Part shown: positions 9,485-51,000 of the stretch, piece by piece
Numbering within the stretch: position 1 is the stretch's first letter
Layout: every line of letters starts with the position of its first letter
Assembly: GCA_963751345.1 (NCBI GenBank)
Contig: CAVVUS010000011.1
Location: forward strand, 384,001-448,000
Direction of reading: 5' to 3'
Source: an uncultured Chloroflexia bacterium
GTDB lineage: Bacteria > Chloroflexota > Anaerolineae > B4-G1 > SLSP01
DNA length: 64,000 bases
Program-made: the position numbers and the translations under genes
The notes under the pieces: generated by a model
What the model was told of the DNA's origin: nothing
Database searches by the model: none
What the model saw: the letters and a program-made list of their open reading frames with translations, nothing else

Positions 9485-11027
9485 ATGGCATACAAAGTAA
9501 AACTCAATGGAAGCAACTACGTAAGTGACAATCGGGTTCAGGCTTTTCAGCAGTCCCTGACGGAAGGCCGTCCGGCTGACGGCGGCAGGCAGAGCAGCCA
9601 TCAGCAGCCGGCTGCGGCACAGGCAGAGGTGCGAACGCCCCCACCTGCAGCTCCGGAGCCGGCGAACGGCGCTCCTGCGATCTGCCGGGGGTTCACCGCC
9701 GGCTGGGGTGGCACCCCAGGTCATGCAACCGTCGGTGGACTACTCACAGGTGCTTGAGAGCCTGGAGCGAGGGTTGGCACAGTCCTACGAACACCAGAGC
9801 GAAACGCTGCGGGTTCACCAGTACTACCTCAACAACGAGGCGGCCTACGCCAGCATCTTCTCACAGCTCATGGACCAGGAGAGCAAGCTCATGCTGGAGG
9901 GGGCCGCATCACCCGAGCGGTCTGAGGTCGTGCTCAACGTGCTCGAGACCTTGACACACAGCGTGGAGCAGTTCCACACACACCAGACTGAGACGCTCAA
10001 CGTGCACAGCCAGTTCCTGAACCAGCAGGCAACCTATGCTGAGGCCTTCGTTGAACTCCTGCAGGACCATTACGGTACGGTGCTGCACGGCACCAATGGC
10101 AACGGGAACGGTAACGGCAATGGTCACGGGAATGGGAATGGCCATGGCTCGGGTAACGGGAACGGACACACGTCCGAGGCAACGGTGCAGGCCAAAGCCA
10201 CGGCCGGCCGGGGCAATGGCAATGGGCACGACCCCGCGCTGGGTCAGCCGCTTGCCGCCCAGCTCAACGCCGCGGCGCCTGTCGTAAGTCCACCGGCACC
10301 CGCTGTCAGGCCCGGTGTGCCGCAGCAGGCGATAGCGACCGCTGCGGTAGCGCCTCAGACGGCGGTGGCGCCTCAGACGGCGGTAGCGCCTCAGACGGCG
10401 GTAGCTGCCGCCCCTGCGACAACACAGGCCCCCGCCATCAGTGCCGAGGCACTTTCAGCGTCGCTGCTTGACATCGTCAGCGACAAGACGGGCTACCCGG
10501 CCGAGATGCTCGACCTCGATATGGACATGGAGGCGGACCTGGGCATCGACTCCATCAAGCGCGTTGAGATTCTGGGTGCGCTCCAGGAGGCCTATCCGGA
10601 AATGCCGGAGGTGGAGACCGACGCGCTGGCCGAGCTGCGCACGTTGGCTCAGATCGTGGCCTATACAGGGAGCCGGCTGCCATCCGGTGCGCCGGTTGAG
10701 ACGGTCGTCCCTGATGCGGTCGCCTCCGAGCCGGCGCAAGTGGCTCCCGAGCCCGCTACCGCAGCAGTGGATGTCGACGCACTTACTGAGGACCTGCTGG
10801 CGATCGTAAGCGACAAGACGGGCTACCCTGCGGAGATGCTCGAGCTCGATATGGATATGGAGGCCGACCTGGGGATCGATTCCATCAAGCGCGTCGAGAT
10901 CCTCGGCGCACTCCAGGAACAGCATCCTGAGCTGCCCGAGGTGGAGGCGGATGCCCTCGCCGAGCTCCGGACGCTTGCCCAGATTCTGGGCTATATGCAG
11001 GAAAGGACGGCACCAAAAAAAGCCTGA
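9485..11027 (+). CDS. PfaA/HglE-like linker plus tandem ACP-ACP part (frameshift ~9690)
   Basis: KLNGSNYVS motif, two helical repeats (QSETLRVHQYYL and QTETLNVHSQFL), an NG/NGH-rich linker and two ACPs with DLGIDSIKRVEI. Confidence 0.88.
10344..10405 (+). repeat. 18-nt tandem array, GCGCCTCAGACGGCG family
   Basis: (gcggtRgcgcctcagacg) x3.4; encodes AVAPQT. Confidence 0.9.
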
Positions 11028-11032
11028 AGCGG

Positions 11033-11875
11033 GTGGGCCTCGGCGAGCCAGAGCGCCTCGGAGAATCTGAGGGCGCTCGTCTTGAGGGCGACGTGCAGCC
11101 GGATGATGACAGGCTGCAGCCGGTCGCGGTTCGGGTTCGAGGTTTACCCGCTCCCGATACACTGGAGTTCGGCCTTCCCCAGGGCGACGTCTGCCTGGTG
11201 ACGGATGACGGCTCCGAGATTGCGCCCGCCGTGGTCGATCGGCTGACGACGCTTGGGTGGCCCGTGGTGATGCTGGGTCTGCCGGAGGGTGTGCAGCGCG
11301 AAGCGCCTGCCCGCGTGCCACGCTCTACGCCGGCGGTGCCGGTGATCGGTCTGACGGGGGTTGAGGAGTCGGACATTCGTGAGGCGCTGGCGCGCGTCCG
11401 GGCGGAACACGGTCCCGTGGGCATATGTATCTACCTGCATCCGCGCTTCCCCGCGCGCTCTCAGGCTGACCAGGCTCTGGCACCTGAGGACCGTGTCCTG
11501 CTGTCGGTCCCATTCCTGGTCGCCAAGATTCTTCAGCCGGATCTGGTAGCTGCGGCCACGGCCGCGCAAACCGAGACACTCAGCCGGGCCTGCTTTCTCA
11601 CGGTGACCGCGCTCGACGGTGTGTTGGGGCTCGACGGATGCGGCGATGCTGGCCCGATGGCCGGCGGGGTCGCAGGTTTGACCAAGACGCTCAGGCTGGA
11701 GTGGCCTGACGTCTACTGTCGTGCCGTCGATCTCGACCCTCGGCTGGCTGCCGATCAGGCCGCGGACGCGATCCTCGCGGAACTGCGGGATCCCAACCGT
11801 TTGGTGGCTGAGGTAGGGTATGGTCCCGAGGGACGGGTGACGCTGGAACAGGCCGATGGGCAGATCAGCAAATGA
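11033..11875 (+). CDS. KR N-terminal structural subdomain of the PfaA-like synthase (HglF-like)
   Basis: VCLVTDDGS, FLTVTALDGVLG, GGVAGLTKTLRLEWPDVYCRAVDL; lies in the -1 frame right after the ACP ORF. Confidence 0.75.
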   Translation: MGLGEPERLGESEGARLEGDVQPDDDRLQPVAVRVRGLPAPDTLEFGLPQGDVCLVTDDGSEIAPAVVDRLTTLGWPVVMLGLPEGVQREAPARVPRSTPAVPVIGLTGVEESDIREALARVRAEHGPVGICIYLHPRFPARSQADQALAPEDRVLLSVPFLVAKILQPDLVAAATAAQTETLSRACFLTVTALDGVLGLDGCGDAGPMAGGVAGLTKTLRLEWPDVYCRAVDLDPRLAADQAADAILAELRDPNRLVAEVGYGPEGRVTLEQADGQISK

Positions 11876-13853: not shown

Positions 13854-16800
13854 TGGGCAAAGCCGGCATCATTGGTATGGACTGCGTCTTCGGGGACGCG
13901 GGCGACCTTGAGGTGTTTGCTCGCCTGGTCTATGTGGGCACGCCGTTACCCCTTGGTGCGCCTCAGATGTCGCCTGAGAGCGGGACCTCCACGCCAGGCG
14001 GGCTTGCTCTGCTCGTGAAGCGGCTCCTGGGCGCTCGACCCTCAGGGATGAGCGACGGGCCCGCCCCTCAGATCGGGGCCATTGTCTGCGCTACGGAAGC
14101 GAGTGTGGACGCAGCCACGATGGCGGCGACGCTCTCGTTCTATGGCACACCAGGTCCGAGCGAGGGCTTCGACCTGGGCCGGATCGCGGAGGCGTTGGAG
14201 CTCGCCCAGGCGTGGTTGACCCAGGGGGCCGCAGATCTGGTTCTGCTGGCGTCACACGATCAGGTCGGCACCTGTGGCATCGTGATAGCACCTGCCCAGG
14301 CCGTTTCCCCGGCTCGCATCTACGCTCTCGTCGAGAGCGTCACCGTGGGCGTCACAGAGCAAGGCTCCGCGCTCTATCGTCGGGGCTTGGCGGAGGCTGG
14401 CGCGACCCCGGCCGAGGTCGGGCTGCTGCAGGTCTCTGACTGGCCACCCAGTGCGGAGTTGGCTGCCGGATACATGACAGCATCTGAGGATCTCACGTGC
14501 GCTGTGGGCACGACGCCCGTAAGGCCGGACCCGCAGGGCGGTAGACCACCGGGCGAGGGCGCCGTATCCCCGCTCTGGAACGTGATCAAGGCGGCGCTCT
14601 GTCTCCACCGACGAGTGATCCCACCGACCGGCTTGTATTCCTTGCCGGTGACGGAATCCGCCGAAGCCGGCGTGCCCATTCGCGGCTCATCCGGCTGGCA
14701 GGACACACCTTTCTACATCGTACCGGAAGCCCGACCGTGGTTTGCGGGAAACGGGCGCCGCATCGCCTCCATTGTTCGCGAGGCGGACGTGGCCTGGCAG
14801 ATCGTCCTGTCGGAGCCTGCCCCGTCTCGGGAGATCGGGACATCCGGACGTATGGCCATCCGGCCCGGAGCAGCCGGTGAACCGAGCGTCCTTTTGCCCA
14901 TCGCCGGTGAGGACAAAGGCCAGATCCTCTCGCGGATGGACGCACTCCGTCGAAGTCTCGAGGGGGGAGCGTCGCTGCCGTCGGTGGTTGAGGCTGCCTA
15001 CGAGCGGTATGCCGCCGAGGCGGAGGCCCCCTATGCCCTCGCCCTGGTGGGGCGCAGGTCCGGGCGGTCGGAGTTGAAGGACGCGATCCTGAAGGAGATG
15101 GCGTTTGCGGCTGAGGGCGTCGAAGGGGCGGACCGGCAGGAGTGGCAGACGCCCGGTGGTAGCGTCTTCACGGCGCACCCGCTTGGGTCGCAAGGGGTGG
15201 CCTTCGTCTATCCTGGGGCGTTCAACTCCTACATCGGCCTGGGCAAGGACCTCTTCCAGCACTTTCCGGATCTGCACGAGCGCCTCTCCGGCCTGGTGTC
15301 CGATCTGGGGCGGGCTGTAGCCGATAGACATATCTATCCGCGCAGCCGAACGCGTCTGACGGAGAAAGACCTCGCTGGACAGGCAGGAGCAACTTACCGC
15401 AGACCCGCCGGCGCTGATCGAGTCGGGCACGGTCTTTGCCGTTGCTCACACGCACGTCATGTGCGAGGCATTCGGGGTGCAGCCACAGGCGGCGCTGGGC
15501 TACAGTCTGGGCGAAACGAGTATGCTCTGGGCGGCAGCCGTATGGCAGGACGGTGACGCGGGCGCGAGCGCTATGCGGTCGTCGCCTCTCTTCGGGGATC
15601 GAATTGTGGGGCCCAAGGCAGCGGTCCGTGAACACTGGGGCCTCGGTCCCGAAGAGGATGTCGATTGGGCGGTATTCCTGCTCAAGGCGCGCGTCCACGA
15701 TGTCCAGGAGGCGCTCAAGCGAGAGCCCCGGGTCTATCTGACGCTGGTCAACCAGCCCGGCGAGGTGGTAATCGCGGGCGACGCAGCCGGCTGCCAACGC
15801 GTCGTCGACGCCCTTGCGTGTCACGTGCTGCCCGTTCCCTACGACGTCGTCATCCACGCCGAGGCCATACGATCAGAGTACGGGGCGTTCGCCGAACTCT
15901 ATACGCATCCCGTGGCCAACCGCCCTCCGATGGATTTCTACTCGGCGGCGGACTACGGGCCTCTCACATTGGACAGCGCCGCGCTGGCGGACGCGATGGC
16001 GAGGATGACGTGCCAGCCCGTGGATTTCCCGCGCCTGGTTCAGCGCGTCTACGACGATGGCGCGCGTGTTTTTGTGGAGCTGGGTCCTCTCGGCACGTGC
16101 ACGCGGCGGATCAAGCGGATTCTGCGGGGCAGACCTCACGGCGCTGTGGCGATCAATCCTGGTGTTGGGGATGATTTCGATGGTGTTGTCCGCGCGCTCG
16201 CGTACCTTGTAGCGCATCGCGTGCCGATGGATCTTTCACCGCTATACGCGAGCGAGGCCGCGCTCCCTGTCCTTCCGGTTCTGTGGGCGGAGCCTGAGAT
16301 GGTAGAGGCGCCCTCGCCGTCTGAGGCGCCTTCGCCGTCCGAGGCGCCTTCGCCGTCCGAGGCGCCTTCGCCCCAGTCCCTTGAGGTGCTCCTGGAGGCG
16401 TATGGTCGCCGGCTGCTTCCCCACCGGCAGAGAGTGGCGATGTCGCACGAGAGATTCCTCGCGGCCCGCCATGCTGCCCAGGTGGGGGCCGGCGCCTTGA
16501 TTGACATGCAGCTTTCTGTAGGTCGGGTCATGCTGGGGACGCAGGTCCGGGTTCCCCATCGCGCCACCCCCCCCGCTCCTCCGCCTCCCTACGGGGAAGC
16601 GGAACTGCGCGCCTTCGCAATGGGTGACGTGGAGCGATGTTTCGGTCCTGATTTCGCCGTGTATCGCGGCAGGCGTCTGCCCAGGATCCCGAACGGGGAT
16701 CTGCTCTTGATGAGCAGGATTGTGCACATCGCGGGGAATTCAGACGACGGGCGTCATGCCGGCGCACCCGGTGCAGGACGCGGGCCGCCGTTCCGGTGCG

Positions 16801-17818: not shown

Positions 17819-17875
17819 TGTACCTGAAAATCTCCCAGCGGGCTGTGGCTGCCCGCGGAAGGCAGAAAGAGCACT

Positions 17876-19522: not shown

Positions 19523-19569
19523 GTACTGTTGAGCGTAGGATCTGTAGTGTTCCAGCCAGGAGGTCAGCG

Positions 19570-19811: not shown

Positions 19812-19860
19812 GGACGTCCGAACGTGGGAACGTTTCAACGTGAGAACGTTCCCACGTCCG
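19812..19860. repeat. palindrome built from 8-nt ACGT-core units between convergent genes (possible bidirectional terminator)
   Basis: gacgtccg aacgtggg aacgtttc aacgtgag aacgttcc cacgtccg; 13-bp arms acgtgggaacgtt and aacgttcccacgt. Confidence 0.7.
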
Positions 19861-22135: not shown

Positions 22136-22218
22136 ATCCACCCTAGATAGAAGGATCACCTGCTTCGGCTAGCGCCTGGATGGCATCGTGTCCTCCACGC
22201 CTTAGCATGTCTCGATGT

Positions 22219-22443: not shown

Positions 22444-22457
22444 GACTCGAGCGATAC

Positions 22458-30779: not shown

Positions 30780-33326
30780 ATGCGGGGGGGCCTGGGCCGG
30801 ACGCTGCTGACTGCGTTTCTGATCCTCACGATTCTTCCTTTGGTCGTTATCGGCGGCTATGCAGTCCGCCAGAACCGGATGAACCTCGAACACGAGGTCG
30901 CATCTCGGCTGCTCTCTGTGGCCGCCGTCGAAGGCCAGACGTTGTCGCGTTGGCTCGATCAACTGGAGACCTCGCTCTCGACTGTTGTGCTGGTCGAAGC
31001 GAGCCGTGGTGTGCGAGATGCCGAGGCGTCGGGCTATGCGACGTGGTGGTCGGCGCAGCAACGGCAGGTGTCGGGGCTCACCGGGATGGTCGTGCTGGGA
31101 GATGCAGGTGCGGGCGCGACGCCCAGTCCGCTGGGCGCCTCGTCCAGTCCGCTGGGCGCATTCACCCCGGCAGTCCTCTGGCAGACCGGGGCGTGTCGAC
31201 CGGCTGCGGAGGCCATCACGCCTGAGCTACCTGACCTGATTTCCGCTGCACGCAAGGCTCAGCCCTCGGTCTCCCGTCAGGTCGTCGCCTTCGATCCGGG
31301 CACGGCTGGGCCAGAAGCGGGCTTGGCGGTCGTCGTGGGAGCAGCGGAGAACACCATCACCAACGGCGGGTGGCGGGCCGCTGTCTTGTGCGTCGATGCA
31401 GCAGCCGTCCAGGACGTCCTGCAAACTGGGGCGGGGATTGGCGAGACCGGGCGCGTCAGGCTCGTTCACGGATCGGTCGTATGGCCTGGCGGCGAGCCAA
31501 GCGTCATGCCTGCAGTTGCCCTGGCGAGCGACCGTGGCGATGGCGGACGGCCGCTCGGCAGCTACCAGGATCAGGATGGCACCCAGGTCGTCGGTGCATG
31601 GTACCCGCTCCCCGATCTTGGGGGGGGCATCCTGGTCGAGCAGTCTCAGGCCGAGATCACGCAGTCAACCGATAGTATAGCGGCGACCCTGATTGCGCTC
31701 ATCCTCGGCGTCGCCCTCGGTACGACCGCGATTGCGGCGGTCGTGATACGGCAGATCACGCGCCCCGTGATCGACCTGACCGAGTCGGCGGTGGCGATGG
31801 CCGAGGGTGACCTTGACCAGCACCTGTCCGTGCGCTCGCGGGACGAGATCGGGATTCTGACGTACGTCTTCAACGACATGGCGGCGCAGCTGAAGTCGCT
31901 GTACGAGGATCTGGAGGCGAAGGTTGTCGAGCGAACCAGGCGGCTCCAGGAGGCCAACACCCAGATTCAGCGGCGCGCGCTCCATCTGCAGGCGAGCCAA
32001 GAGGTCAGCCAGGCGATCACGTCCATTCGCGACCCGGAGCTGCTGCTGATGCAGGTGACCGACCTGATACGGAACCACTTCGTCTATGGGGCCGTGGCTG
32101 TCTACCTTGTCCCACCCGGAGGCGGAGAGGCGCGACTGCAGGCGCATGCGCCTCAGACGGCGGCGCCTCAGACAGCGACGCCTCAGACAGGGGCGCTCGA
32201 GACGGCCTCCCTCCCCCCGCGCGGGAGCGTTGGGGAGGGGGCGTGGCCGGCGACGGTTCACATCGGCGACAGCTCGGTGGTCGCGGCGACCCTGCGGGCA
32301 GGGACGGCCACCGTCCACAACGAGCCGGCACTCGGCGAACACGACTGGTATGCCCGGATGCTCAGCAGGGCGGCCGTCCCGCTAAAGATGGAGGACCGCG
32401 TCGTCGGCGCTATCGCGGTCACGGCGACGGTTCACGAAGGCATCGAGCAGGACGAGCTGGAGGTACTGGAGGTGCTGGCGAATCAGGTGACCATTGCGCT
32501 GGAGAACGCCCGGACGTATGAGCGCGAGCGTCAGGCGATAGCGCAGCTTGAGGAGGCCGAGGCTTTCAAGGCCCGCTTCCTGGCGAATATGTCGCATGAG
32601 CTGATGGAACCTCTGAACACGATCCTCGGGTTCTCCCGCTTGCTCATCAAAGGCGTGGAGGGTCCGCTGAATCAACGTCAGCAGGAGGACCTGGAGCAGA
32701 TCCACGGTGACAGCCAGCACTTGCTGGATTCCATCAGGGATATACTATCTATCTCACAGATAGAAGCCGGCCTGCTGGAACTGCGGCTGCAGCCCGTCGA
32801 TCTCCGGGAGCTGGTCGCCGGCGTTGTGCCGACGGCAAGCGCGCTGGTTCGGGGGCGAGCGATCGAGCTCAAGTACGATGTACCTGCGGATCTGCCGCGG
32901 CTTCGCGCGGATCCTTCTCGTCTGCGGCAGGTGCTGGTTCATCTGCTCAACAACTCGGCCAAGTTCACGGAATCGGGCGAAATCAGACTTCGGGCATGGT
33001 CCGCTGGAGGGACTGGGCGACTTCAGCCGGACGTGGACGGCCGTTGCGTGATCTTTGTCAGCGTGAGCGATACGGGTATCGGCATTCCTGCCGAGGATCG
33101 GGAGCGCATCTTTTCGCAGTTTGAGAAGGGGGGCAAGCGTGCCCGGACGGCGGCCGGCAGCGGGGCGGGCCTGGGCCTTGCGCTCTGCCGCGAGTTTGTG
33201 GCGCTCCACGGCGGTCGAATGTGGGTGGATAGCGAGGTAGGGGTGGGGAGCGTCTTCACGTTCTCCGTACCGGCATACTGCGACGCGGAAGAGGGAAGTG
33301 CCGCTCCCGGTGCAGGCGTGGCCTGA
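30780..33326 (+). CDS. membrane sensor histidine kinase (TM-Cache-like-TM-HAMP-GAF-HisKA-HATPase)
   Basis: HAMP ITRPV...DEIGIL..FNDM; GAF ending ANQVTIALENAR; H-box FLANMSHELMEPL; LLNNSAKFT, DTGIGI and GAGLGLA. Confidence 0.9.
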   Translation: MRGGLGRTLLTAFLILTILPLVVIGGYAVRQNRMNLEHEVASRLLSVAAVEGQTLSRWLDQLETSLSTVVLVEASRGVRDAEASGYATWWSAQQRQVSGLTGMVVLGDAGAGATPSPLGASSSPLGAFTPAVLWQTGACRPAAEAITPELPDLISAARKAQPSVSRQVVAFDPGTAGPEAGLAVVVGAAENTITNGGWRAAVLCVDAAAVQDVLQTGAGIGETGRVRLVHGSVVWPGGEPSVMPAVALASDRGDGGRPLGSYQDQDGTQVVGAWYPLPDLGGGILVEQSQAEITQSTDSIAATLIALILGVALGTTAIAAVVIRQITRPVIDLTESAVAMAEGDLDQHLSVRSRDEIGILTYVFNDMAAQLKSLYEDLEAKVVERTRRLQEANTQIQRRALHLQASQEVSQAITSIRDPELLLMQVTDLIRNHFVYGAVAVYLVPPGGGEARLQAHAPQTAAPQTATPQTGALETASLPPRGSVGEGAWPATVHIGDSSVVAATLRAGTATVHNEPALGEHDWYARMLSRAAVPLKMEDRVVGAIAVTATVHEGIEQDELEVLEVLANQVTIALENARTYERERQAIAQLEEAEAFKARFLANMSHELMEPLNTILGFSRLLIKGVEGPLNQRQQEDLEQIHGDSQHLLDSIRDILSISQIEAGLLELRLQPVDLRELVAGVVPTASALVRGRAIELKYDVPADLPRLRADPSRLRQVLVHLLNNSAKFTESGEIRLRAWSAGGTGRLQPDVDGRCVIFVSVSDTGIGIPAEDRERIFSQFEKGGKRARTAAGSGAGLGLALCREFVALHGGRMWVDSEVGVGSVFTFSVPAYCDAEEGSAAPGAGVA
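31120..31162. repeat. 21-nt hairpin tandem (CCAG-TCCG-CTGG family) in the kinase periplasmic domain
   Basis: gcccagtccgctgggcgcctc and gtccagtccgctgggcgcatt. Confidence 0.8.
32148..32207 (+). repeat. 15-nt tandem array, GCGCCTCAGACGGCG family
   Basis: Encodes APQTA APQTA TPQTG ALETA inside a GAF loop. Confidence 0.85.
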
Positions 33327-33376: not shown

Positions 33377-35375
33377 ATGGCCAAGCGGAGTAACAGGGAT
33401 CGGGAACTGAGGGCATCGTCGCCGGGCCGCGCGTCGCGCAGCCTGCTGCCTGCGATGCTACGTTTGAGTCGAGTCGCAACGCTACTCGCGTTCGTCGTGA
33501 TCTGCGCGTCGATCCTGATGTTCTATCGCGACATGTTGGCCTGGGCCATCCCTCTTGGCGTCATCGGTTTGGTGCTCGCAATCATCGGGGGAACGCTGAC
33601 GCAGAGCCTCCTCATCCCGAAGCTCGCGGCACAGTTGTTCTCAGCACAGAGCAGCTTCCGCTCCGCGCTTGATGATCGCGCGGCGCTGGCGAGTCAGGTC
33701 GCCGGGCTACGGGACGATCGGGATGAGCTGAAGCAGCGTCTCCTGGCGCTGGAGGATGTGCCTGCGCCTCAGACGGCATCCGCGCCTCAGACGGCATCCG
33801 CGCTTCAGACGGAGGCCGCGCCGCAGACGGCGTCCGCGTCGCAGACGGCGTCCGCGTCACGCGATGCCGGATGCCTCCGGGCAGGGGAAACGCGCCGGGG
33901 CTGCGCCGCACGGGACAGCTGCCGCCCCCGATGGGGCGGATGAGATACTGCGATGGGCCGGCAGATTGGCCACCTCAAGAAGCATCTCGGCTCTCTATGG
34001 GGTTGTCAACGAAGCTATGCAGGGCAGCCGGCCGGCGCGCGTGCTCATCGTCTCGGGGAGCGCCAACAGCCAGGGCGGTCAGGCGATCGACGCCGGTATG
34101 GCCGTCGTGAGCGATGTGCAGGACGGTGGTCAGGTCGCGCCCTCGGCTGGCTCGCATCGTGATGATCTATCCTTGATGGCCGTGCATCCGCCCCAACTGG
34201 CTGACCTGATCCTGCTCGGATCGGGACTCTCCCAACCATTGTGGGTCGAGGATCTGTCCTGCGTCGATCCCGTATTGAGCCCCGAACTCGGCGAAGCGCT
34301 CGTCGGCTTGCGGGAGACCACCCTCTTTGGGGCGTTGGCGCTGATTCCGATGCGTGTCGACCTGCAGCGAGAATCTGGAAGCCCGGGGGACCCTTCACTG
34401 AAAGGGGGCGCTTTGCCCCTGGCGCGGGGGGCGGTTATTGCTCTGTTCGGGGCTGCCCACACGTTCGGGCCGGATGAACGTCGGCTCCACGAGTTGATCG
34501 GCGGTGTGTTCGGCGTCACGTTGGAGCGGATGCGCTCGCTGAGCGACACCCGTGCCGGCCTGATACGGCAGAACGATCTGTCGACGATGGGGCGCAAGAT
34601 CCGCCGTGCCACCGGCGCGGATGCCATCCTGCGGATTTCGGTGCAGGAGCTGAGCCTGGCATTGGGGGCATCCCGCGCGGAGATCCGTCTTGACCCGCAG
34701 GCAACTCGCGACGTGATGGGGTACCTTCCTGCAGACGGCTCTGGTGGCCTTCACGTCGTCGTCGCGTCCGGTGCTGGGGTCCCATCTTGTGCTTGGGTCA
34801 CGGACCTGGGCGATGGATGTTGCGAGCTGTGTGCTCCCATCGTGGTGGCGGACCGAACTCTCGGGTCGATCGTCTTTGAGCAAGATCCCGGTGATGAACC
34901 CTGGGGCACGGCGGATGCTGCTCTGGTCGATCACGCGTGCGAAGAGATCGGTCAGGCACTGGGATATGTCCGGCACCTGGAGGAGATGCAGAGCCGTACC
35001 AACTACGAGCACTTGGGCAGGGAGATCGGCGAGCGTCTGCGCGCCGGTGACGGGGCCTCGCTGCGTCTTGGTGGCGACGGTCGCGGTCCGGACGGGGCAT
35101 CCCCCCGACTCTACCGTGACGGGAACACAGCCGCGATGGACGTCGATCGCATTCTGCGGGCCACGCTGGGTGAGTTGGCCTCCGCACTTGGGGCCACCGG
35201 GACGATCACGCTTCATGCACCTGACGGCTGGGTGACGAGCGCCGCAGGGACGGGCGACGAGCCCCGTGTGGGTGAAGCCACCCCGGGCGCGCAGGCCGGC
35301 GGTAGTGACGCAGACGGGGCACAGCCTCCTAGCTTCGACGACGATGGTAGCGGTCCGGATGGAGGCGTGTCGTGA
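33377..35375 (+). CDS. membrane-anchored protein with degenerate GAF domains and split-GAF tail (frameshift ~33865)
   Basis: Two N-terminal TMs and a coiled coil (33377..33943), then GAF-like segments and tail VDRILRATLGELASALG (33756..35375). Confidence 0.65.
33764..33858 (+). repeat. 18-nt tandem array x5, GCGCCTCAGACGGC family
   Basis: Encodes APQTAS APQTAS ALQTEA APQTAS ASQTAS. Confidence 0.9.
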
Positions 35376-36626: not shown

Positions 36627-38717
36627 GTCGCGAGACGACGCAGCCTAACCGTGGACCCGATCGGGCGTCGCTTCGTCTCTACAGAGGCGGGCGCGCGCCG
36701 ATAGTGGGCGGCGGGTCCCGATCCCTCGTACGTGGGTCGGTTCGCCACCGTCTTCGGACCATGTTGCTTGTCTCCGGTGCGGTGACACTTGCGGTCCTGG
36801 TGGCGTTTGCTGTATACACGCTGCTCATTGGCCGCCAGTTGCAGGTGGTTCTGGGGTTAACGAGTGTCTCCGATAGCGTAGCGGAGGCCTCAGAGCAGCT
36901 GGCATCGTCTCGCGCCGGTCTGCTTAGCTACGCCGGAGGCGTGGCCCCCACGCCGGATGAGGCTGTGGCGAGCCTGGATCGCGCCTCAAACCTCCTGGCA
37001 GAGTCTCGCGCCAACGCCGGTCAGGAGTTGGGTGCACAGATCGAGACCCTGCAGCAGGCTCTCGTGGATCATCGAGTTGAGCTGGCAGCGATAGTAGAAG
37101 CATCGCCCCTCAAAAACCCTGTCCCTGAGGGCGAGGGAGTTCTGGCGGCATCGCCCTTGGTGGACGAGGCGGTTGCGTCGAGCCTGGATCTCAACAACCG
37201 GATCGGGCGCGTGGCCGAGGATGTCCGGCAGGCATCGAATGTTGCCCACGCGATGCTGAGACAGCGAGTCTATCTGTTGGCGATGGTGATTCTGAGTCTG
37301 GCCTTTGTCGGCCTCGTCGGCGTCTCGCTCGTCTTCGCCAACACGACAGGGAGTATTGCCCGCGGGATCGAGGCCCTGCACGCCGGTGCCCAGCAAGTGG
37401 CACGCGGCCGGCAGGGCGTCACAATCCCCGTCGAGGGTGATGGTGAACTGGGCGCCGTGGCTGTGATGCTCAACAGGATGTCTTCGAGATTGGCCGTTCT
37501 GGGCAGTCCGGCATCCACGTCGGTGCCGTCCGTGGAGGCGAGGTTGCTTCCCAGCGTCACACGGGGTGCGCAAGCCAGGTCTATGGTGATGCAAGGCGTC
37601 ATTCGGGTCGGTCGCGCAATTGCCGGTCCCCTGGATCTGGCGACAGTCGAACACAGAGCGGCTGCGGAGATCCGCGACACGTTTCTCCTCGACTGGGCCG
37701 GGATCTACCTTGTGGCAGAGAACGGGCGGACGATCGAGTTGCGAGCGAGTGCGGGCGATGTGGGGGGCAATGCTGATCCACAGGAACGACGTCTGGCGAT
37801 CGGCCAGGGCCTGGTGGGAGGCTCTATCGCAGAGGACAAGCTTCGCGGGAGCGCGCTGGAGATGGCAGCCGCCACCGGTGCGGAGGAGTCGGAGCCCGCG
37901 TCGAGAGCCGAGCGGATCACGCGGGTAGCGATTCCCTTACGTGCAGGCGGGCGTGTCATAGGGGCATTGAGTCTGGTCCTCGATCAGGGGGGATCCCGTT
38001 CGACCTCCACTGCGGGCGGTCTCTCTCTCCCGGCGACCCTAGATGTGCTCGTCGCTGAGGCGCCCGATTTGCTCCAGGCGATGGCGGATCTGGTTGCCGG
38101 TGCCATTGAGAGCGCCCGGCGCTATGGGGCGTCGCCGTCGGCCTTGGCCCCTGGGGGCGAGACGTACCGCAGCTTCACCCGGGATGGATGGCGGCGCGTG
38201 TTCGGTGATCGGGCAGCCGAATACCAACTGACCGGGGCCGGCGCTGTGTCGCGCTCGGAAGGCCCATCGCAGCCCGAGCTGGAGCCTGCGAGGGTGTCGG
38301 GCGAGGTCGTGCGGGAAGGACGGACCGTAACCCTTCCCCTCTCGGTTCGGGGCGAGGCCATCGGGGCCGTGCGCCTGCGGAAGGAAGCCTCGAAGACATC
38401 GCCCGGCGAGATCGATCTGGACAGACCACGAGGTCGAGCTCGCGAGGACGATTGTGGCTCGGCTTGGCGTCGCCCTCGACAGCGCGCGGCTCTATCAGGA
38501 CGCGCAGTTGAGTCTGGCGCGGGAGCGTGCGGCGCGTGAGGTCGCGGATCATATGAGGAATACGCTCGACTGGGACGAGCTGATGCAGACAGCGGTTCGC
38601 GAGATCGGTCGTACGGTTCAGGCGTCGCGAGTTTTCGTGCAGTGGGTGCCGCCCGAGGCGGAGTCTGAACACTCCCCCAGTCCGACGACGACCTCCGCGC
38701 CGCAGTACGGCGTCTGA
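36623..38717 (+). CDS. TM-helical periplasmic-TM-HAMP-GAF-split-GAF protein, no output domain (frameshift ~38420)
   Basis: HAMP GELGAVAVMLNRM; GAF; LPLSVRGEAIG; tail DWDELMQTAVREIG; ATGA overlap. Confidence 0.8.
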
Positions 38718-38758
38718 GCCGCGTACGGCGTCCGAGCCGCGTACGGCGTCCGAGCCGC
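38705..38758. repeat. 18-nt tandem x3, stem-swapped variant CGGC-GTCYGA-GCCG
   Basis: (gtacggcgtcYgagccgc) x3; the first unit contains the upstream gene's TGA. Confidence 0.9.
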
Positions 38759-38783
38759 AGCCGCCTGGGATTGAGAGGGAGGT

Positions 38784-41211
38784 ATGAGCCCCGCGTCCGT
38801 TCTGGCTATAGCGCTGCGCGTGCTTGCGGCCGGGGCGGCGGCGGTCGTGATCTGGCTGCTCGTCCGAGCGGCGACCGTTCGTTGGCGCGTAGCGGGAATC
38901 CGGACCCGACTGGCGGTGATCTCGATCGCGTTGGTTCTGGCCGTCGCGGTGGCCGTAGGTGGTACCTCAGTCTTCGTCGGCGTTCGCGCCTCTCGACAGC
39001 GAGCTTTCGACCAGCTCGAGACAGCGGTGGTCCTGAAGCAGCAGGCGGTCGATAGCTGGGTCCATCAACTCTCGTTTGCCCTGGATTCCCTGGTCGTCGA
39101 GGACTATGAGGTCCAGCGAGCGCAGTCGGTACTCCTCGGGAATCTGCCTGAGGATTTCCGCGCGACCGCCCGCCAAGAGCTCAGGACGCGATTCCTCAGT
39201 GTCATCCACCGCACCCAGTGGTTCGACGAAATCTCTCTCGTCACCACCGACGGTGTGGTCGCGCTGTCCACGGATGCCGATCAACAGGGCCGGAATGTAA
39301 CGGGCGCACCGTATTTTGCCGAAGCGTTAACAGGCCCCTACATCACGCCCCCCTATTACGACCCGGTCGCCGGTGGGGCTACGGTCGTCTTCGCGCGACC
39401 ACTCCAACTCGGCAACTACGTCTATGGTATCCTCGCGGCACGTTCGAGTATGGATGGGTTGACGAGAATCACCGGTGGGATGGCTGGCACGGCGCCGGCG
39501 GCCCAGCTGGGGACGGAGGCCTCAGCCGGTAGTGCGACGTATCTTGTCGGGCGTGACTACATCCTGCTGACGGCGCCTGTGCTGGCGGGTGGGTACCTTC
39601 CGGTTCACAGCCCGGCTGTCGATGCGGCTGTAGGCAGTCACGTGACGCTGGGCCGCGGGACGTATACGAACCATCGGGGCATATCGGTCCTGGGTGTCTA
39701 CACCTGGGTACCCAGCCTTGGAGTTGGCCTTGTCGAGGAGCTGACGACCGCCGAGGTGTTGGCCGGTGCGCGGCAGACCTCATACGCCACCGTTGGTATA
39801 GCCGGGCTCGCCGCCTTGGCTGCTGTGCTGGCAACGCTCGTCTTCTCGCGCGGTATCACCAACCCACTGACGGATCTTGCCAGGACTGCCACCCGCATTG
39901 CGGAGGGCGATCTACAGCTTCAGGCCCCTATTGAACGCGAGGATGAGGTGGGTGCTGTGGCCGGGGCTTTCAACGCGATGACGGCGCAACTGCGTGATCT
40001 GATTAGCGATCTCGAACGCCGAGTAGAGGCGCGAACCCGCGGCCTGCAGGCCGTGGCCGAAGTCTCCCGGACGACGACGTCGGTGCTGGATCCGGAATTG
40101 CTCTTGCCCCAGGTGGTCAATCTGGTTCAGCAGCGGTTTGGACTCTACTACGTCGGGTTGTTCCTGTGGGCGCCCGCGCCGTCCGAGGCGCTTTCGCCGT
40201 CTGAGGCGCTTTCGCCGTCCCCTGCCCAATCGTACGCTGTCCTGCGTGCCGGAACGGGAGAGGCGGGCGCCACAATGCTGGCGCAGGGCTGGCGTCTGGC
40301 GGTCGGCGGCGAGTCGATGATCGGGCAGTGCCTTGCTACAGGCGAGCCATTCGTCCTACAGCGGCAGGAGGATAACGTCGTGCGCCTGGCGAATCCACTG
40401 CTCCCTGAGACGCGATCTGAGCTCGCGCTGCCGCTGCGCTACGGTGAGCGCGTGATCGGCGCAATGACCGTTCAGAGTACTGAGGAGGCTGCTTTCGGTG
40501 AGTCCGACATCTCTGTGTTCCAGAACCTCGCCGACCAGGTGGCCGTGGCGGTGCAGAACGCCCAGTTGTTCGCCGAAACCCAGGCTGCGCTGGATCGCGC
40601 TCGTCGCCTCCAACGGCGGTACCAGACTCGGGCGTGGTCCGACTATCTGAGTGACCTGGACGTCACCGGTTACGAACTACGCGCCTCGGACGGCGTAGGC
40701 GCCTCGGACGGCGTGCGGACGCCTCGGACGGGGCGAAGCCGCATACCGGCGACAACGGTCACACTGGAGACGCCGGGGGGGACGACTGACCCGATTGACG
40801 CAAGGAATCCTTCCGGAGGTCCGCGAGGGCTTGGCCCTGGATCACCCGGTTGCCCAGGGCTCCCAGTTACGTATACCCCTTCGGCAGGGCGGGCAGGTCG
40901 TGGGGTTGATGGGCATTGAGCGGGCGTCGGGATGGCAGGAGGACGAGATCGAGCTGGTCCAAGGCCTGGTTGAGCAGCTCACTTTGGCCGCCGAGAATCA
41001 GCGGCTGCTTGACGATGTGAGTAGTCGCGCGGCGATGGAGAGAACCATCAGTGAGATCACATCTCGGGTCCGCGCCGAAATCGAGATAGAGTCGGTGCTG
41101 GAGCGGGCGCTGGCCGAATTGGCGAGGGCGTTGGATGCCGAGCACGGCGTGGCATTGCTGGAGCTCAACGGGTCGCCGGCCGACGGTTCGGATGGGGAGG
41201 ACAGCGCATGA
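38784..41211 (+). CDS. dCache-like-HAMP-GAF-split-GAF protein, no output domain (frameshift ~40720-40800)
   Basis: Cache-like periplasmic domain; HAMP DEVGAVAGAFNAM; GAF NPLLPETRSELALPL; tail IESVLERALAELARAL. Confidence 0.85.
40177..40220 (-). repeat. 18-nt tandem, GCGCCTC(A/G)GACGGCG family, reverse orientation
   Basis: (cgccgtcYgaggcgcttt) x2.4; encodes PSEALS in a GAF loop. Confidence 0.85.
40681..40732 (+). repeat. tandem GCGCCTCGGACGGCG x3
   Basis: Read in a different frame as ASDGVG ASDGV. Confidence 0.85.
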
Positions 41212-42960: not shown

Positions 42961-42964
42961 GGTC

Positions 42965-45900
42965 GTGAACCAACAAGGCAATCGGGCCGCACGGCCTGGC
43001 ACCAGCAACCGGATGACGTTGATCGTGGCGGGGCTTCCTCTGCTCTTTCTCGCGCCCCTCCTCATCGGCCTGGGGTGGTACTACCTGGACGCCCATCGAG
43101 AGGACGCCTGGAGCCAGGCTGACCTCGCAACGCTGCAGGTGCGTCAGATCGTCAATGCCCTCACACCGTCTGTCGGTACGATCGAGGATGCGCTTGGCAT
43201 CACGGGTTATCTCGAGGAAACGGCCGGGAACGCGGCGGACTTCGACTTCATCGCCCTGGTGACCTACGATGGCACCGTTCTGGCGCACGCCAGTCCGCTG
43301 GCGCACGCCAGTCCGCTGGCGCATTCGCTCTCCGGCTACCAGGGGCTCAGGGTGGCGGAGTTGGCAAACCTCTACCAGGGGACGATCCCACGGGGCCCGG
43401 TTCAAGATCCCGGGGCTACGCCCACGAGCGGGGTTACCCGGCGCACCCTTCCCGGCGGAGATGTCTATCTCGTCTGGCGCGCCATGGCTATGCCGGGAGG
43501 CAGCGTCTCGGGTCCGGAGGGCCGGCTTTACATCGTGGTGGGTGAACCGGTAAGCGTCGTGGATCTGCCGGTTTACCCGTTCGTTATCGCGGGGGGAGTG
43601 GCCATCCTGGTGATCACCTTGATTGTCCATATGACACTCCGCCTGTTAGTGGTCGAGCCTTTAGGGAAACTCGCCGAGGGCGCTGTTCGCATCGGTGCTG
43701 GAGATCTGGCGCACACGATTCAGTTGGACCGCAAAGATGAGTTCGGGTTCGTTGCCCGTGCTCTTAATGATCTATCCGGCAGGTTTGGGGTCGCCGTATC
43801 AAGCTTGGAGCGTACCGTCGCGTCGCGCACGGCCGAGCTGGAGCGCCGAAACACGCAGCTTCGTGCGGTGAGCCTCGTTGCGCAAGAAGCCACGCGAGAA
43901 CGCGACGTGAACTCGCTGTTGACGACGGCGGCCAGTGCGATCTCCGACAACTTCGGATACTACCACACAGGCGTTTTCCTCGTCGATGACGCAGGGGAGT
44001 GGGCCATCCTGCGGAGTGCCTCGTCGGAGGGCGGCAAGCGAATGCTCAGCCGGGGACATCGGCTGAGGGTCGGACAGGTGGGTATCGTCGGCTACGTGGC
44101 GGCGCGCGGCAAACCGCGTGTCGCCTCGATGGTGGACAAGGACGAGGTTTGGTTCGATAACCCGGATCTTCCCGAGACCCGGTCCGAGCTTGCGCTTCCG
44201 CTGCTCGCGCGACGCCAATCTGCCGGCGCTCGCCAGGCCGATGGCGCTCGCCAGGCTGCTGGCGCTCGCCAGGCTGCTGGCGCCTTACCCTCCGTCATCG
44301 GCGTGCTCGATGTCCAGAGCGTTGAGATGGCAGCGTTCACGGAGAGTGACATTGCCACGTTGCAGCTCATGGCAGATCAACTGGCCGTGGCCCTCAACAA
44401 TGCCCAGGCCAATGACCTAATGGAAATGGCTCTGGCGGAGCTGCGTGATCTGCAGGTTGACTATGGCCAGAGGGGTTGGGCAAGGGTCGCACGGCGCATG
44501 CGCCCGATGGCCTATGAGTACGATCGTGCCTCCACGGTGCCGGTGCCCCCTGTTCCTATACCTCCCGATCTGGCGGAGGGCCGGATCTTGTCCGGCGTGG
44601 TGATGGATGGGGGAGTCCCCACGATCCTGGAGGCGCTTCGCGTTGGAGACCGGACGCTCGGGTACCTGGGTCTGACCGACGCCAACCGGGTCTGGGCGGA
44701 GGACGAGCTGGCCCTCGTCAGAAGCGTCGGCGAGCAGGTGGCCCTGGCGCTCGACAATGCGCGGCTGTTCGAAGACACCCAGCGCAGCGAGCGCCAGCAG
44801 TATCTGATCAGCCGCATTCTGCAGGCGGCTGCGGCGCCTCGGACGGCGGAAGCGCCTCAGACGGCGGAAGCGCCTCAGACGGCGGAGGCGCCTCAGACGG
44901 CGGAGACCGAGACGGGACAGCGCCCCGTCTCCGCGACCGCCGGCGATGGCCGGGAGCCGCAGGCGGCAACGGTGCTGCGTGAGATCGCGCGAGTACTGGC
45001 CCAGGGACTCAATATGGCGGTGGTGATCTTCACCTTCCCCAATCCGGGACGCCCCGTAGTTAGGTCGCACGCCGTCATCGACCCCAGCGGCGAAAGGCTG
45101 CCGCTCTTTGAAGAGGATCTGACGCTATCACCTGAGCATTTCTATTTCTTCCATGGTCTGGCAGATCCGGAGTTGGGGCCTCTGGCTCCACTCTTGGAGG
45201 GCTCGGATACTCTCCGTCGGCATCGTGCCGATCCCGCTGCCTCTCAGCCGGACGACAGCTATCTTGGAGCGTTGGACCGTTTCGACACCGATCGCGTGCT
45301 CTATGTGCCGATCGCCCAGATCTCGCAGAGTCGCATCCGCGAGGGCTTGAATGTGGCAGCGTCGCGAGCGACGGCAAGTCGCAGCGGTTTCATCGCCCTG
45401 ATCCCGGTGCGCGACGCTCCTCCGGTGGATCCCGACACTCGTGAGTTGGCCCAGGATCTCGCCAACCAGGTCGCCGTGGTCCTGGAGAACCTGAACCTGT
45501 CCGAGGAGACCCGTCAGCGTTCGGAGGAGTTGCGCGAGCTTTATCGGATCTCGCTGGAGCTCGCCGAGATCCTTGAGCCCGGGGAGGTGCTTGCCCGCCT
45601 GATGGTCCGGGGCACGGCCCTTCTGGGAGCAGACGCTGCCAATCTCTGGATCTATGACGCTGATGCGGGTGGGCTGGTGCCGGCGTCTCGATCACGTTCG
45701 TTGGGACGCAGAAGACGGGGACGCGGCGCGAGCATACCGACGGCGAGGGAAGGGTACCCGCGGCGCCGGTTGTCCGTCCGATTCGGTTGGGACGCGACTT
45801 GGCGGACGAGGCGCTCGACCGGCAGCAGACGGTCTACACGCCCGATGTCGCCGCGCAGGGAGAGTTGAGTGATGCCGCAGGGCCGTTCCGATCCTTGATG

Positions 45901-48003: not shown

Positions 48004-51000
48004 AGCGCGCGAGCAGAAGCCGGGCCGTGCTTCTCGATGAGGTGAGAGACCTTCGGGAGCAGCTTGCCACGTTCTCGGGAGATGATCTGGCGACCACCGT
48101 CCGGCTGGTCCAGCCACTCATCGATGCAATACCGAACCCGATCTACTACAAAGCCGCGAACGGCGTCTACCTGGGCTGTAACGCTGCCTTTGCCAGGGAT
48201 GTGCTGGGGATAACCCGGGATAGGATTGTTGGCTGCACCGTAGCCGATCTGGCCGACGCGGTCCCTGCGGAGCTTGGCGACCTGCACGACAGGCAGGACA
48301 TCGCCCTTATGGCCTCGCACGGGACGCAGGTGTTTGAGGCGCCTGTCAGGTTCGCCGATGGATCTGAGCGTGACGTCCTCTTCAGCAAGGCCGTGCTTGA
48401 GGGGCCCACGGGCGGGATTGCCGGTATGGTAGGGGTTATGGTCGACGTGAGTGCCTACAAGTCGCAGGAGACCGGGCGCGACGCCGATCTGCTCGATGCA
48501 CAGCGACGGGCCACGCGTCTGCAGGTGGCCGCCGAGATCTCGCGGGCTGCATCCTCACTGCTTAGCCTTGATGAGCTGCTCCCGAAGTCCGTGAATCTCA
48601 TTCGCGATCGCTTTGACTTCTACTACGCCGGCATCTTCCTGCTCGATGAGCTCTCCGAATGGGCAGTTCTGCGCGCCGGAACCGGCGAGGCCGGCAGCAA
48701 GATGCTGGCTGCCGGGCATCGGCTGCTGCGCGGCGGCGATTCGATGATCGGCCAGTGCGTGGCCACCGCCGAGCCCCGCATCTCGCTTGACGTCGGCGAA
48801 GTGGAGACCCGCTTCGATAATCCCCTCCTTCCGGAGACGCGCTCGGAGATGGCGCTTCCCCTCATCAGCCGGAACAGGGTGATCGGAGCGATGACGATCC
48901 AGTCCGACCAGGCGGGCGCCTTTGCCGAGGAGGATATCACGGTCCTGCAGACGATGGCCGACCAGCTTGCCAACGCCATCCAGAACGCGCATCTCTTCGA
49001 GCAGATGGATGAGGCGGTCCGTGAGAACGAGATGCTCTATAACGTGAGTACCGCCGTCGGGGACGCCCGGTCACTGGAAGGCGTGCTGCAGGCGGCAGTC
49101 GACGTAGCGGCCTTCCTGGCGATGGACAGTGCTGCGCTCTGGACGTTCACGCGCTGGGATGCAGAAGGCGTGCCTGTGGCGGCAGATGTGCATACGGAGA
49201 CCTTGCGCCAGGCCGGAGCCGCGGATTTCCAGGAAGAGCAGGGCATAGCCTTCGACCGGGATCTGTATGGCTGGCTGTTTGCCGATCCCAGGCGCATCCA
49301 CGCTTACGCGGACCTGGGCGAATCGGCGGACCTGCAGGTCGTTGCGGGGGCAGCACCTGAGCTTCCCCCCCGGCAATCCTGGACCCCATGCGGCGTCAGG
49401 GGAATCGCAGCCTGATCGCCGCCGTGCTGGTCTCGCGGGAAAGACACCAGGGCGTCCTGATGTTGTATGGCCCCCAACCCCTCAAGGCGCTCCCCGATCA
49501 TCACGTCCAGGTGTTCGCTCGGTCGCTGGCCGATCAGGTGGCTTCGGTCCTGGACCGCCATGCGCTAGCTGCGGAGGCGGCGCGGCGGGCGTCGCAATTG
49601 GCCGCAGCGGCTGAAGTCTCGCGCGCCCTCTCGGCATACCTCGACTTGGAGCAGTTGCTGTCGGTGGCTACGTCACTCATCCAGGATCGTTTGGGAGTGG
49701 CCTACGTGGGTGTCTACGTGCAAGGGGAGGCGATCGGGACTGCGCCTGCCGGCCTGGATTTGCGGGCCGGGAGCGGCGACACAGCAGGCCGGTGGGATCC
49801 CGAAAATCCCCCTGCCTGGATCGGCAGATCCATCGGCGAACGCCGAGTCATGCGCAGCAGCTCGCCGCACTCGGAGAAGGCGAGCCGGGCGTGGGGAGCC
49901 ACGCCGAGCCTTGCAGCCCTCCCGCTTATCAGCCACGGCGAGGCGGTCGGTGTCGTAGTCATTGAGGCTGCGACTTCGGCGGCGCTCGACGACAATGATG
50001 TGGCGATCTATGCGACGCTTGCCGATCACCTGGCCAATGCGATTGTCAATGCCCGGCTGTTCGCGTCCTCCCAGGCGAGCCTCGAAGAGCTGCGTCGCCT
50101 GCAGCAGCAGTACGCTATGGGTATGTGGCGAGACTACTTGGCGCATCAGGAAGTCCTCGGCTATGCCTATGATCGTGAGGAGATTCTGCCGGTGGAAATC
50201 CCGGGTGCGACGGAGGGAGATGAGAGCCCGGAGCTCGCAGCAGCCGGGTCGTGGGAGCGGACCCTCGAACGTCCCCTGCATATCCGGGGCGAGACCGTCG
50301 GGGTGATGAGCTTCGGCGCCCCAGACGGCGTCGGCGACGCCGGAAACCCCGCCGGCGTGGTCAGAAGACCAGGTCGCGGTGCTGGAGGCCGTCCGTGAGC
50401 AGCTCGAATTGGCCCTGGAGAACCGGCTATTGATGGACCGTTCGCAGCGCTCGCTGGCGGAGACGAGGGCGCTCTATCGGATCGCCCAGCAGATCACCGA
50501 CGCCCGCGACACGACATCCGTCTTGCGGGCCGCAGTAGGGGGCATCTCCGTTCGTCAGTCTGAGGATACGGCGGTCGGGCCGGACTACGTCATAGCAGCG
50601 CTGCTTGAGCCCCGGACCGGCCCGAACAGGCTTCGCATCGTAGCCTCGCAAAGTCGCTCCGGCGACCCTGCACCGGTGGATGGCCTTTATTTCGATGATG
50701 TCCGCCGGTTCTATGAGGTGCTGCGCATCGAGGACCGGTTCATCACGCCGGATGTGAGCGGGAATCCTCTGTTCGGGGAGGGCATGCGGCGCTTCTTCGA
50801 GGAGTTGGGCATTCGTGCGACGGCGGCGTTTCCGCTGAGGGTTCGTGACGCCTACTATGGCACGATGATGGTCCACAGCGAGAGCGTTCGGGAGTTCACG
50901 GCCGCCGAGCTGAGCTTCTATGAGAATGTGGCGCGGCAGGCCTCGGTGGCGCTCGACAACCTCAGCCTTGTGGATGTCACCCGCGCGCAGGCCGAGCGTC

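Follow-up and report, generated by a model that had tools for sequence, protein, structure and literature searches.

In a 64,000-nucleotide stretch of the genome of an uncultured Chloroflexia bacterium (the window: contig C11, positions 384001-448000, of assembly G000, which comprises 5.40 Mb in 49 contigs at 62.8% G+C), a 15-nucleotide sequence, GCGCCTCRGACGGCG, recurs in short tandem arrays both within and between genes. We find that this sequence, hereafter the core, is one member of a group of short hairpin repeats that is specific to a lineage within a single Anaerolineae genus. On balance, the core is probably a miniature, non-autonomous hairpin similar to the repetitive extragenic palindromes (REPs), seeded via a step on single-stranded DNA and amplified by slippage. 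An initial annotation of the window, made from the sequence alone, had proposed a selfish, REP-like element acting at the level of DNA, and our results support that proposal: of the two observations it had named as contradicting the idea, a lack of genome-wide over-representation and confinement to one frame with synonymous variation, we found neither.

In the window the core occurs 15 times exactly, compared with 0 times in each of 100 dinucleotide-preserving shuffles, and 29 times with up to two mismatches, compared with 1.86 expected and 7 in the richest shuffle; the latter count fits the earlier figure of about 25 units. The genome as a whole has 108 exact copies, spread over 22 of its 49 contigs, compared with 0 for the reversed pattern that served as a control, which establishes the over-representation that the initial annotation had put forward for checking. 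At up to two mismatches the genome contains 351 matches at 263 loci, 49 of which are arrays of 2-7 units. For further analysis, 116 loci were retained, comprising every array together with singletons of no more than one mismatch, while 147 two-mismatch singletons were left out as likely noise. Using gene calls from a home-made codon-bias scorer of open reading frames (ORFs), we placed 54 of the 116 loci inside confident ORFs and 62 outside, such that the description of the element as intragenic holds for the former but does not cover the element as a whole.

The 54 coding loci between them use all six frames (APQTA 23, PSEA 8, ASDG 7, RLRRR 7, AVRG 5 and RRPRR 4), and the core lies in sense orientation at 37 of them and antisense at 17. 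The APQTA, PSEA and ASDG readings given earlier for the window are correct, and AVRG is encoded exclusively by the G variant of the core because the A variant would create TGA. Since stop-to-stop ORFs may overstate coding, we additionally examined 20 core-bearing ORFs with Pfam. At least one case in each non-APQTA frame was supported by a domain that spanned the insert or flanked it in frame: ASDG in HlyD_D23, AVRG between TPP_enzyme_C and POR, PSEA in the CarA glutamine amidotransferase, RLGRR in MoaC and RRPRR in CBM_48 of an isoamylase-like enzyme. One 'RLRRR' case proved to be an intergenic palindrome within an open frame. Among the 3,094 confident ORFs, 28 of 33 AP[QR]TA peptides are encoded by the exact core 15-mer, for which codon usage predicts 0.2-0.6%, and 31 of the 33 use the rare proline codon CCT (13% usage), leaving almost no synonymous variation. 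The repeat period is 18 nt in 39 of 41 intervals at coding loci, and outside confident ORFs it is 17 nt (15 intervals), 18 nt (21) or 20 nt (6). The use of six frames, the near-absence of synonymous variation and the periods of 17 and 20 outside confident ORFs bear out the claim that the repeat is conserved as DNA and not as peptide.

APQTA is the commonest coding frame and arrays do lie in linkers and loops, for example between acyl carrier protein (ACP) domains and in GAF loops, as would be expected if a flexible Ala/Pro/Thr-rich linker had been selected repeatedly and convergently. We consider such peptide-level selection exceedingly improbable and reject it on account of the six frames, the identical 15-mer coding and the Pfam-supported non-APQTA frames; in addition, the A/G variant swaps Gln for Arg, and the same core is found between genes at the tips of REP-like hairpins (see below). 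Spread through duplication of paralogous genes was likewise ruled out. The 53 array-bearing ORFs form 51 BLASTP clusters, in agreement with the unrelated host genes reported initially, and the sole paralogues are the three HAMP-GAF proteins of the window. Given this diversity of hosts and the identical 15-mer coding, the copies share descent as DNA and not through gene duplication. The core also differs from an ordinary intragenic tandem repeat born of slippage, whose unit is unique to its locus, in that the same 15-mer is found at more than 100 loci.

For a protein of the window, the nearest named relatives come from 'Anaerolineae bacterium' metagenome-assembled genomes, at 68-75% identity. 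Exact cores are concentrated in five genomes, namely G000, with the 108 copies given above, its sister species G002 (136) and the congeners G016 (45), G012 (31) and G004 (20). The other 16 genomes of the genus have 0-2 copies and 19 genomes of other genera have 0, with the reversed-pattern control at 0-1 across the compared genomes. A search for three GTCYGA loops (the core loop read on the other strand) spaced 18 nt apart gave 11 matches in G000 and was positive in 4 of 300 additional genomes from the class, with the matches listed confined to one or two loci per genome. Empty orthologous sites, which the initial annotation had suggested looking for, are present: in three genes of the window, six arrays have no counterpart in 2-8 congeneric orthologues. 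The three arrays of ORF 42827-45868 (at 43280, 44200 and 44834) correspond to clean gaps in the 6, 8 and 8 congeneric orthologues that cover the sites, and among the compared congeners they are present only in G002, with different unit numbers. The window is collinear with G002 at ~80-82% identity, and many of the 74 insertions or deletions of at least 9 nt between them are hairpin units. Copy number differs between the two genomes at most shared sites, and at window position 46245 a four-unit array of G002 has no counterpart in G000. All four G016 arrays with alignable flanks are absent from G000. In a metagenome contig ~97.6% identical to the window, the 44834 array is exactly one 18-nt unit shorter. 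Arrays thus grow and shrink by whole units. Presence/absence polymorphism at orthologous sites is the only sign of mobility seen.

Loss of mismatch repair was considered as a cause and rejected. Of the 22 genomes of the genus, 17 have an intact mutS1 gene, among them the carriers G002, G016, G012 and G004. In G000, mutS1 is split into three frames (C14:159645-162229), and rpoB (C10:143888-147659) and mutL (C32:36681-38277) into two each; because the essential rpoB is also split, these splits are most likely indel errors of the assembly and not pseudogenes.

The core arrays of the window are listed below, with the interval, period and copy number from Tandem Repeats Finder in brackets; the program recovered arrays at all seven positions reported initially. 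The earlier strand assignments were accurate, in that the minus strand carries the cores at 16315-16365 and 40177-40209 and the plus strand all others then listed, and so were the linkers GTA/GTG, GAA/GAG, TCC, TTT (AAA in core orientation) and none, with CTT in the 16305 array. The earlier inventory was sound for the arrays that it listed but missed the variant array at 38694-38758 and the hairpin nature of the units.

10344..10405, plus strand (10344-10405, period 18, 3.4 copies): three exact core units at 10350, 10368 and 10386 with linker GTG/GTA, reading APQTAV at about aa 212-232 of ORF 9708-11027, upstream of the best (aa 253-319) of its two PP-binding stretches; G002 has two good units and degenerate ones at the same site.
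16305..16372, core on minus strand (16305-16372, period 18, 3.8 copies): three exact units and one degenerate, read as SPSEAP by the plus-strand gene 15459-16868, downstream of that gene's own acyltransferase domain; there is no clear array in G002, relative to which G000 has two extra blocks of 17 and 18 nt.
32148..32196, plus strand (32148-32196, period 15, 3.3 copies): one exact, one one-mismatch and one degenerate unit without linker, reading APQTA in the HAMP-GAF histidine kinase ORF 30780-33326; present in G002 and absent from the orthologues in G010, G019, G020 and G004.
33764..33856, plus strand (33764-33856, period 18, 5.2 copies): five units with 1-2 mismatches each and linker TCC/GCC, read as APQTAS by ORF 33377-33943 or, by ORF 33756-35375, in an Arg-rich frame, the assembly containing frameshift errors; G002 has an array at the same site with linker TAC rather than TCC.
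38694..38758, minus strand: variant array located between ORFs 36623-38539 and 38784-40919, in which GCGGCTCRGACGCCG units at 38708-38758 have the stem CGGC/GCCG and are joined by the linker TAC; G002 has canonical core units here, with the loop in the opposite orientation.
40177..40220, minus strand (40177-40220, period 18, 2.4 copies): two exact units and a partial one, reading PSEALS in the GAF region of ORF 38784-40919; absent from the G020 and G019 orthologues, and G002 has units there in the opposite orientation.
40681..40733, plus strand (40681-40731, period 18, 2.7 copies): two exact units and one degenerate, with periods 18 and 20, reading ASDG at the C-terminal tail of ORF 38784-40919 or lying just past its real stop; G002 has one unit more.
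44822..44905, plus strand (44834-44904, period 18, 3.9 copies): four exact units with linker GAA/GAG, reading APQTAE in the HAMP-GAF protein ORF 42827-45868; absent from eight congeneric orthologues, and G002 has three units.
50316..50330, plus strand: lone variant unit GCGCCCCAGACGGCG with one mismatch, as described initially, near the end of the GAF-protein ORF 49388-50398; G002 has three units at the same site.

A perfect 8-bp-stem hairpin, GAGACGGG..CCCGTCTC, lies directly 3' of the 44834 array (44905-44950) and is part of the same 38-residue insertion missing from orthologues.

The core is itself a small hairpin, with a 4-bp stem (CGCC/GGCG) and a six-base loop (TCRGAC). As the loop reads GTCYGA on the other strand, the A/G position noted initially corresponds to the Y of a TCYG loop, and because GGCG and CGCC of neighbouring units can pair via the 2-3-nt linker, an array is a run of alternating small hairpins. 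When the window arrays were folded as single-stranded DNA, five of eight gave z scores of -1.9 to -2.7, with no more than 9 of 200 shuffles folding as well. Linkers are constant within each array and differ between arrays (TCC 8, TA 6, GT 6, GAC 6, GAA 5, TAC 5, GAT 5, and others). This pattern, already noted for the window, fits the seeding of one core followed by local amplification together with neighbouring bases. The tetranucleotide GTAG occurs at some unit junctions, where the linker is TA, GTA or TAG.

The genome contains 385 non-overlapping short tandem arrays, 114 of them with period 18. A perfect stem of at least 5 bp was found in 97 of the 308 arrays with periods of 14-24, compared with ~31 in shuffled units, and a TCYG loop closed by at least 4 bp in 61 of 308 compared with ~1.5, these loops being carried on 33 different stem sequences. 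The core is therefore one subfamily among many short hairpin arrays with variable stems and a constant TCYG loop. The window alone has seven sibling hairpin arrays, which are as follows.

43280..43323, plus strand: CTGGCGCACGCCAGTCCG, hairpin CGCCAG-TCCG-CTGGCG, reading LAHASP in ORF 42827-45868; exactly a 36-nt insertion relative to six congeneric orthologues, two other orthologue matches not covering the site; fewer units in G002.
44200..44283, plus strand: GCTGCTGGCGCTCGCCAG, hairpin CGCCAG-GCTG-CTGGCG, reading AGARQA in the GAF domain of ORF 42827-45868; absent from eight congeneric orthologues.
31112..31159, plus strand: 21-nt array with a CCAG-TCCG-CTGG core in the kinase ORF 30780-33326; absent from G010, G019, G020 and G004, with about two units more in G002.
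4201..4261, no strand assigned: 18-nt array GCGGTCGAGTACGACCGG, hairpin CGGTCG-AGTA-CGACCG; G002 has two units of this family inserted at window position 36258.
59813..59877, no strand assigned: 21-nt array CAGTCCGCTGGGCGCCTCGAC, CCAG-TCCG-CTGG.
61412..61447, no strand assigned: 17-nt array, GCCGAT-TCCG-ATCGGC; G002 has an extra 19-nt unit.
63102..63145, no strand assigned: 18-nt array CGCACGGCAGTAGCCTGC, CGGCAG-TAGC-CTGCCG.

Most of the hairpin arrays of the window lie in a stretch (30780-50400) where at least six HAMP/GAF signalling proteins are encoded in the same direction; one of these proteins is a full histidine kinase and three are paralogues. A second co-directional cluster (2200-19520) resembles a polyunsaturated-fatty-acid or heterocyst-glycolipid-type synthase, with tandem PP-binding, KR, PS-DH and acyltransferase domains and a PfaD-like enoyl reductase that contains a FabD helical insert; the nearest relatives of the PfaD-like gene outside Chloroflexota are in heterocystous cyanobacteria, at ~57-64% identity. 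Two further repeat families were observed. A separate 16-nt tandem-repeat family with AACGTTCC-like half-sites occurs at four loci (window 19820-19857, C11:494555, C21:95362 and C20:9678) and might represent an operator-like motif. An AT-rich tandem-repeat family of 15 arrays, with ATTCTC-like units of 15-23 nt (C10:29167, C37:172923, C37:174086, C18:45684 and 11 more loci), differs in composition from the rest of the GC-rich genome.

Outside confident ORFs, single cores tip at least four larger families of REP-like hairpins. REP-A, with arms GTGCCGGGGA / TCCCCGGCAC, has 47 copies, of which ~12 are core-tipped, and its plain copies have loops such as CTTTCTGAAG or CTTTCCGCAG. A core-like tip is present in 10 of the 17 copies of REP-B, and 13 of the 27 copies of REP-C are core-tipped, the plain loops of the latter being CTCGGAG. 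At C30:16336-16391, a REP-C palindrome has a loop with two inverted cores and forms a perfect long palindrome; these two cores (C30:16348/16365) are the sole inverted pair seen in the genome.

The initial annotation had suggested a search for a nearby HUH transposase or reverse-transcriptase gene. Three Y1-transposase genes are present in the genome, at C19:139446-139937, C23:~278870-279620 and C19:~22200-22790, and all match NCBIfam NF047646, 'REP-associated tyrosine transposase' (RAYT); the genes at loci L002 (92.3 bits) and L003 (81.4 bits) exceed the 80-bit cut-off for this family and the gene at L001 (64.1 bits) is below it. The L001 gene is flanked by REP-A copies, with two plain copies upstream, the first preceded by GTAG, and one copy downstream that is tipped with an exact core. 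A search for RVT_1 domains across the 93%-complete genome gave no match, and a reverse-transcriptase route was therefore rejected. A sequence search of solved structures with the L001 transposase gave 0 matches. At L003 (C19:20974-24111), the RAYT-type Y1 gene (L003:1225-1821, minus strand) adjoins a long tandem array of ~164-bp units, each with two different 10-bp-stem hairpins, CGGGCGGATC.. and CCCGCGGATC...

The core is also asymmetrically distributed between the strands. Taking GC skew over ±25 kb as a strand proxy, and setting aside 27 loci with weak skew or on short contigs, we found the core on the G-rich strand at 68 loci, against 21 where it lies on the C-rich strand (binomial p = 6e-7). 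Loci outside confident ORFs split 36:10 and those inside 32:11, with genes overall only 59% co-oriented, and scoring orientation by 50-kb bins gave 27:6 with 8 ties. An orientation bias of this kind would be expected from single-strand DNA transposition at the replication fork, as in IS200/IS605 elements.

We propose that a single core would first reach a new site through a step on single-stranded DNA during passage of the replication fork. Of the possible seeding enzymes, the strongest candidate, as yet unproven, would be one of the three RAYT-type Y1 (HUH) transposases of the genome. The core and 2-3 adjacent bases may then be amplified locally via replication slippage, which alternating hairpins would favour, and selection would leave only those insertions that preserve the frame (18 nt, six residues) and fall in tolerant loops and linkers.

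Several observations weigh against this account. No enzyme is tied to the core, and the core, REP-A and homologues of the L001 transposase do not co-occur cleanly across genomes, as a REPtron, in which a RAYT gene is accompanied by its cognate REPs, would: G005 has 18 REP-A copies and the closest homologue of the L001 transposase (61%) yet 0 cores, G012 and G004 have cores without REP-A, and G002, with 41 REP-A copies in addition to its many cores, has only a 31%-identical homologue. The L001 transposase itself, with its score below the cut-off, lacks ~40 N-terminal positions of the model. The 4-bp stem is weak and three of the eight window arrays fold no differently from shuffles, while the GTAG tag typical of RAYT substrates is found at only ~10 of ~85 unit junctions. 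The sibling TCYG arrays have no skew bias (13:17), which excludes a generic TCYG-loop rule for the strand bias, and the bias of the core is not cleanly separable from gene strand (Fisher p = 0.08). Neither a target motif nor microhomology was detected at empty sites in 27 site-outgroup pairs (p = 0.08-0.99), using a longest-common-substring test with distant outgroups; three sites had appeared similar to the unit by eye, but the formal test did not support this. Lastly, crude ORF scoring and assembly frameshifts make the 'non-coding' class, and isolated 17-nt periods, less certain. The REP-A copies of G005, a genome without cores, have inner stems and loops that are longer and quite different, which shows that the tip module evolves independently of the outer arms of REP-A.

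The main rival to this account dispenses with a transposase: template switching or gene conversion between arrays, followed by slippage, would make the core a self-propagating recombinational repeat. We regard this as possible though rather unlikely. It would accommodate the lack of clean co-occurrence with any RAYT or REP-A and the frequency of whole-unit insertions and deletions, and the array-specific linkers, together with same-site arrays in G000 and G002 that differ in linker, stem or loop orientation, suggest local homogenisation. In addition, the 36 nt inserted at the 43280 array share 9 nt with the native flank. However, the microhomology test at empty sites was negative, within the limit set by its distant outgroups, and recombination alone predicts neither the 68:21 orientation bias relative to GC skew nor the precise nesting of the core at hairpin tips.

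A host-serving element, either bound by a DNA- or RNA-binding protein or forming an RNA stem-loop that acts in termination or mRNA stability, with genic copies as by-products, would explain why the loop motif TCYGA/TCRGA is kept while stems vary and why many intergenic copies lie within REP-like palindromes. REP palindromes of other bacteria are mostly downstream of coding sequences, and transcription of many of them is plausible, according to Di Nocera 2013 (PMC3733652). Nevertheless, with 0-2 copies in 16 of 21 congeners and none in the 19 searched genomes of other genera, no general function depends on the core, and this patchy distribution, together with genic copies in both orientations, makes a host-serving role improbable. 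The insertions in unrelated enzymes, such as CarA, MoaC and 6-phosphogluconate dehydrogenase, also count against it, and a search of the window against Rfam at gathering thresholds gave 0 matches.

Comparison with known systems places the core closest to REPs and the related bacterial interspersed mosaic elements (BIMEs), although it departs from each described class. According to Di Nocera, De Gregorio and Rocco 2013 (PMC3733652), REPs are 20-40 bp long, with GTAG or CGTC tags and stems of 5-13 bp, and include intragenic copies, dimers of which encode 20-30 residues; Thauera GTAG-1, found through a tandem-repeat database, has a 5-bp stem and short-stem arrays. Like REPs and BIMEs, the core is a short GC-rich palindrome that is dispersed in high copy number, lineage-specific, and both single and clustered, with some copies in frame inside known genes, and the genome has RAYT-type genes, one of which is flanked by related palindromes. 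The likeness to intragenic REPs drawn initially is thus upheld by the palindromic core, by its position at the tips of larger REP-like hairpins and by the RAYT-type gene that one of these flanks. Unlike the REPs so described, the core is 15 nt with a 4-bp stem, has no constant GTAG or CGTC tag, forms head-to-tail arrays of period 17-18 instead of inverted dimers, and doubles as a tip module on several different outer stems; about half of its loci are intragenic, whereas a generic REP is mainly extragenic. It falls outside the GTAG superfamily, in which every unit carries GTAG and the stem is 5-13 bp, and its head-to-tail arrays differ from REPINs, in which two inverted REPs are separated by a short spacer. 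The CGTC superfamily is defined by a terminal CGTC, an 8-9-bp stem whose first pairs are A/T, a 4-5-nt loop and a CCA-like tail (Di Nocera 2013, PMC3733652); the core has an all-G/C 4-bp stem and a 6-nt loop, and CGTC occurs only at its stem-loop junction on the minus strand.

The Rickettsia palindromic elements RPE-1, RPE-4 and RPE-6 are also named in that paper (Di Nocera 2013, PMC3733652). The core resembles them as palindromic selfish DNA that lies in frame in unrelated coding genes and is tolerated as extra surface peptide, but it differs in its unit of 15-18 nt, its tandem arrays and its host phylum. RPE-1 is ~100-150 bp long and is usually found as one copy per site. Elhai and co-workers are said to have described, in 2008, very small dispersed repeats (SDRs) and heptamer arrays of short tandemly repeated repetitive sequences (STRRs) in heterocystous cyanobacteria. 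The core shares with SDRs and STRRs a very short (~20-nt), hairpin-capable and mobile-looking unit with tandem arrays, sometimes in genes, while its sequence, period (7 nt in STRRs) and phylum all differ. Single-strand transposition of the IS200/IS605 family was reportedly described by Ton-Hoang and co-workers in 2010. Features in common with that family would be a hairpin as substrate, an enzyme of the Y1 HUH type and a preferred orientation with respect to the replication fork; unlike the core, for which none of these was found, IS200/IS605 elements carry their own transposase, defined ends and target tetranucleotides. The literature on REPs and RAYTs in Anaerolineae and on hairpin tandem repeats in Chloroflexi, as far as searched, holds no description of the core repeat.

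Taking the proposal of a miniature REP-like hairpin one step further, we raise the speculative and on present evidence unlikely idea that no smaller class of mobile DNA than this 15-nt hairpin has yet been described. As a tip module able to stand alone, it would move in single-stranded form on the lagging-strand template and enter both the exposed hairpin loops of other REPs and coding DNA, through unconventional use of a RAYT or through an unrecognised enzyme. The housekeeping and signalling proteins of the genus would owe many of their new six-residue loops and linkers to it, making it a major source of these.

If the preferred account is true, a REP-type selfish element can shrink to a 15-base hairpin and still spread, and hairpin units explain many of the length differences between orthologous proteins in one lineage. 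The genus would then provide a natural system for studying how single-strand DNA enzymes or replication errors seed repeats inside genes, and how repeated six-residue insertions are tolerated in CarA, MoaC, GAF sensors and ACP linkers. For annotation, it carries the warning that short 'low-complexity linkers' in Chloroflexota proteins can be mobile DNA.

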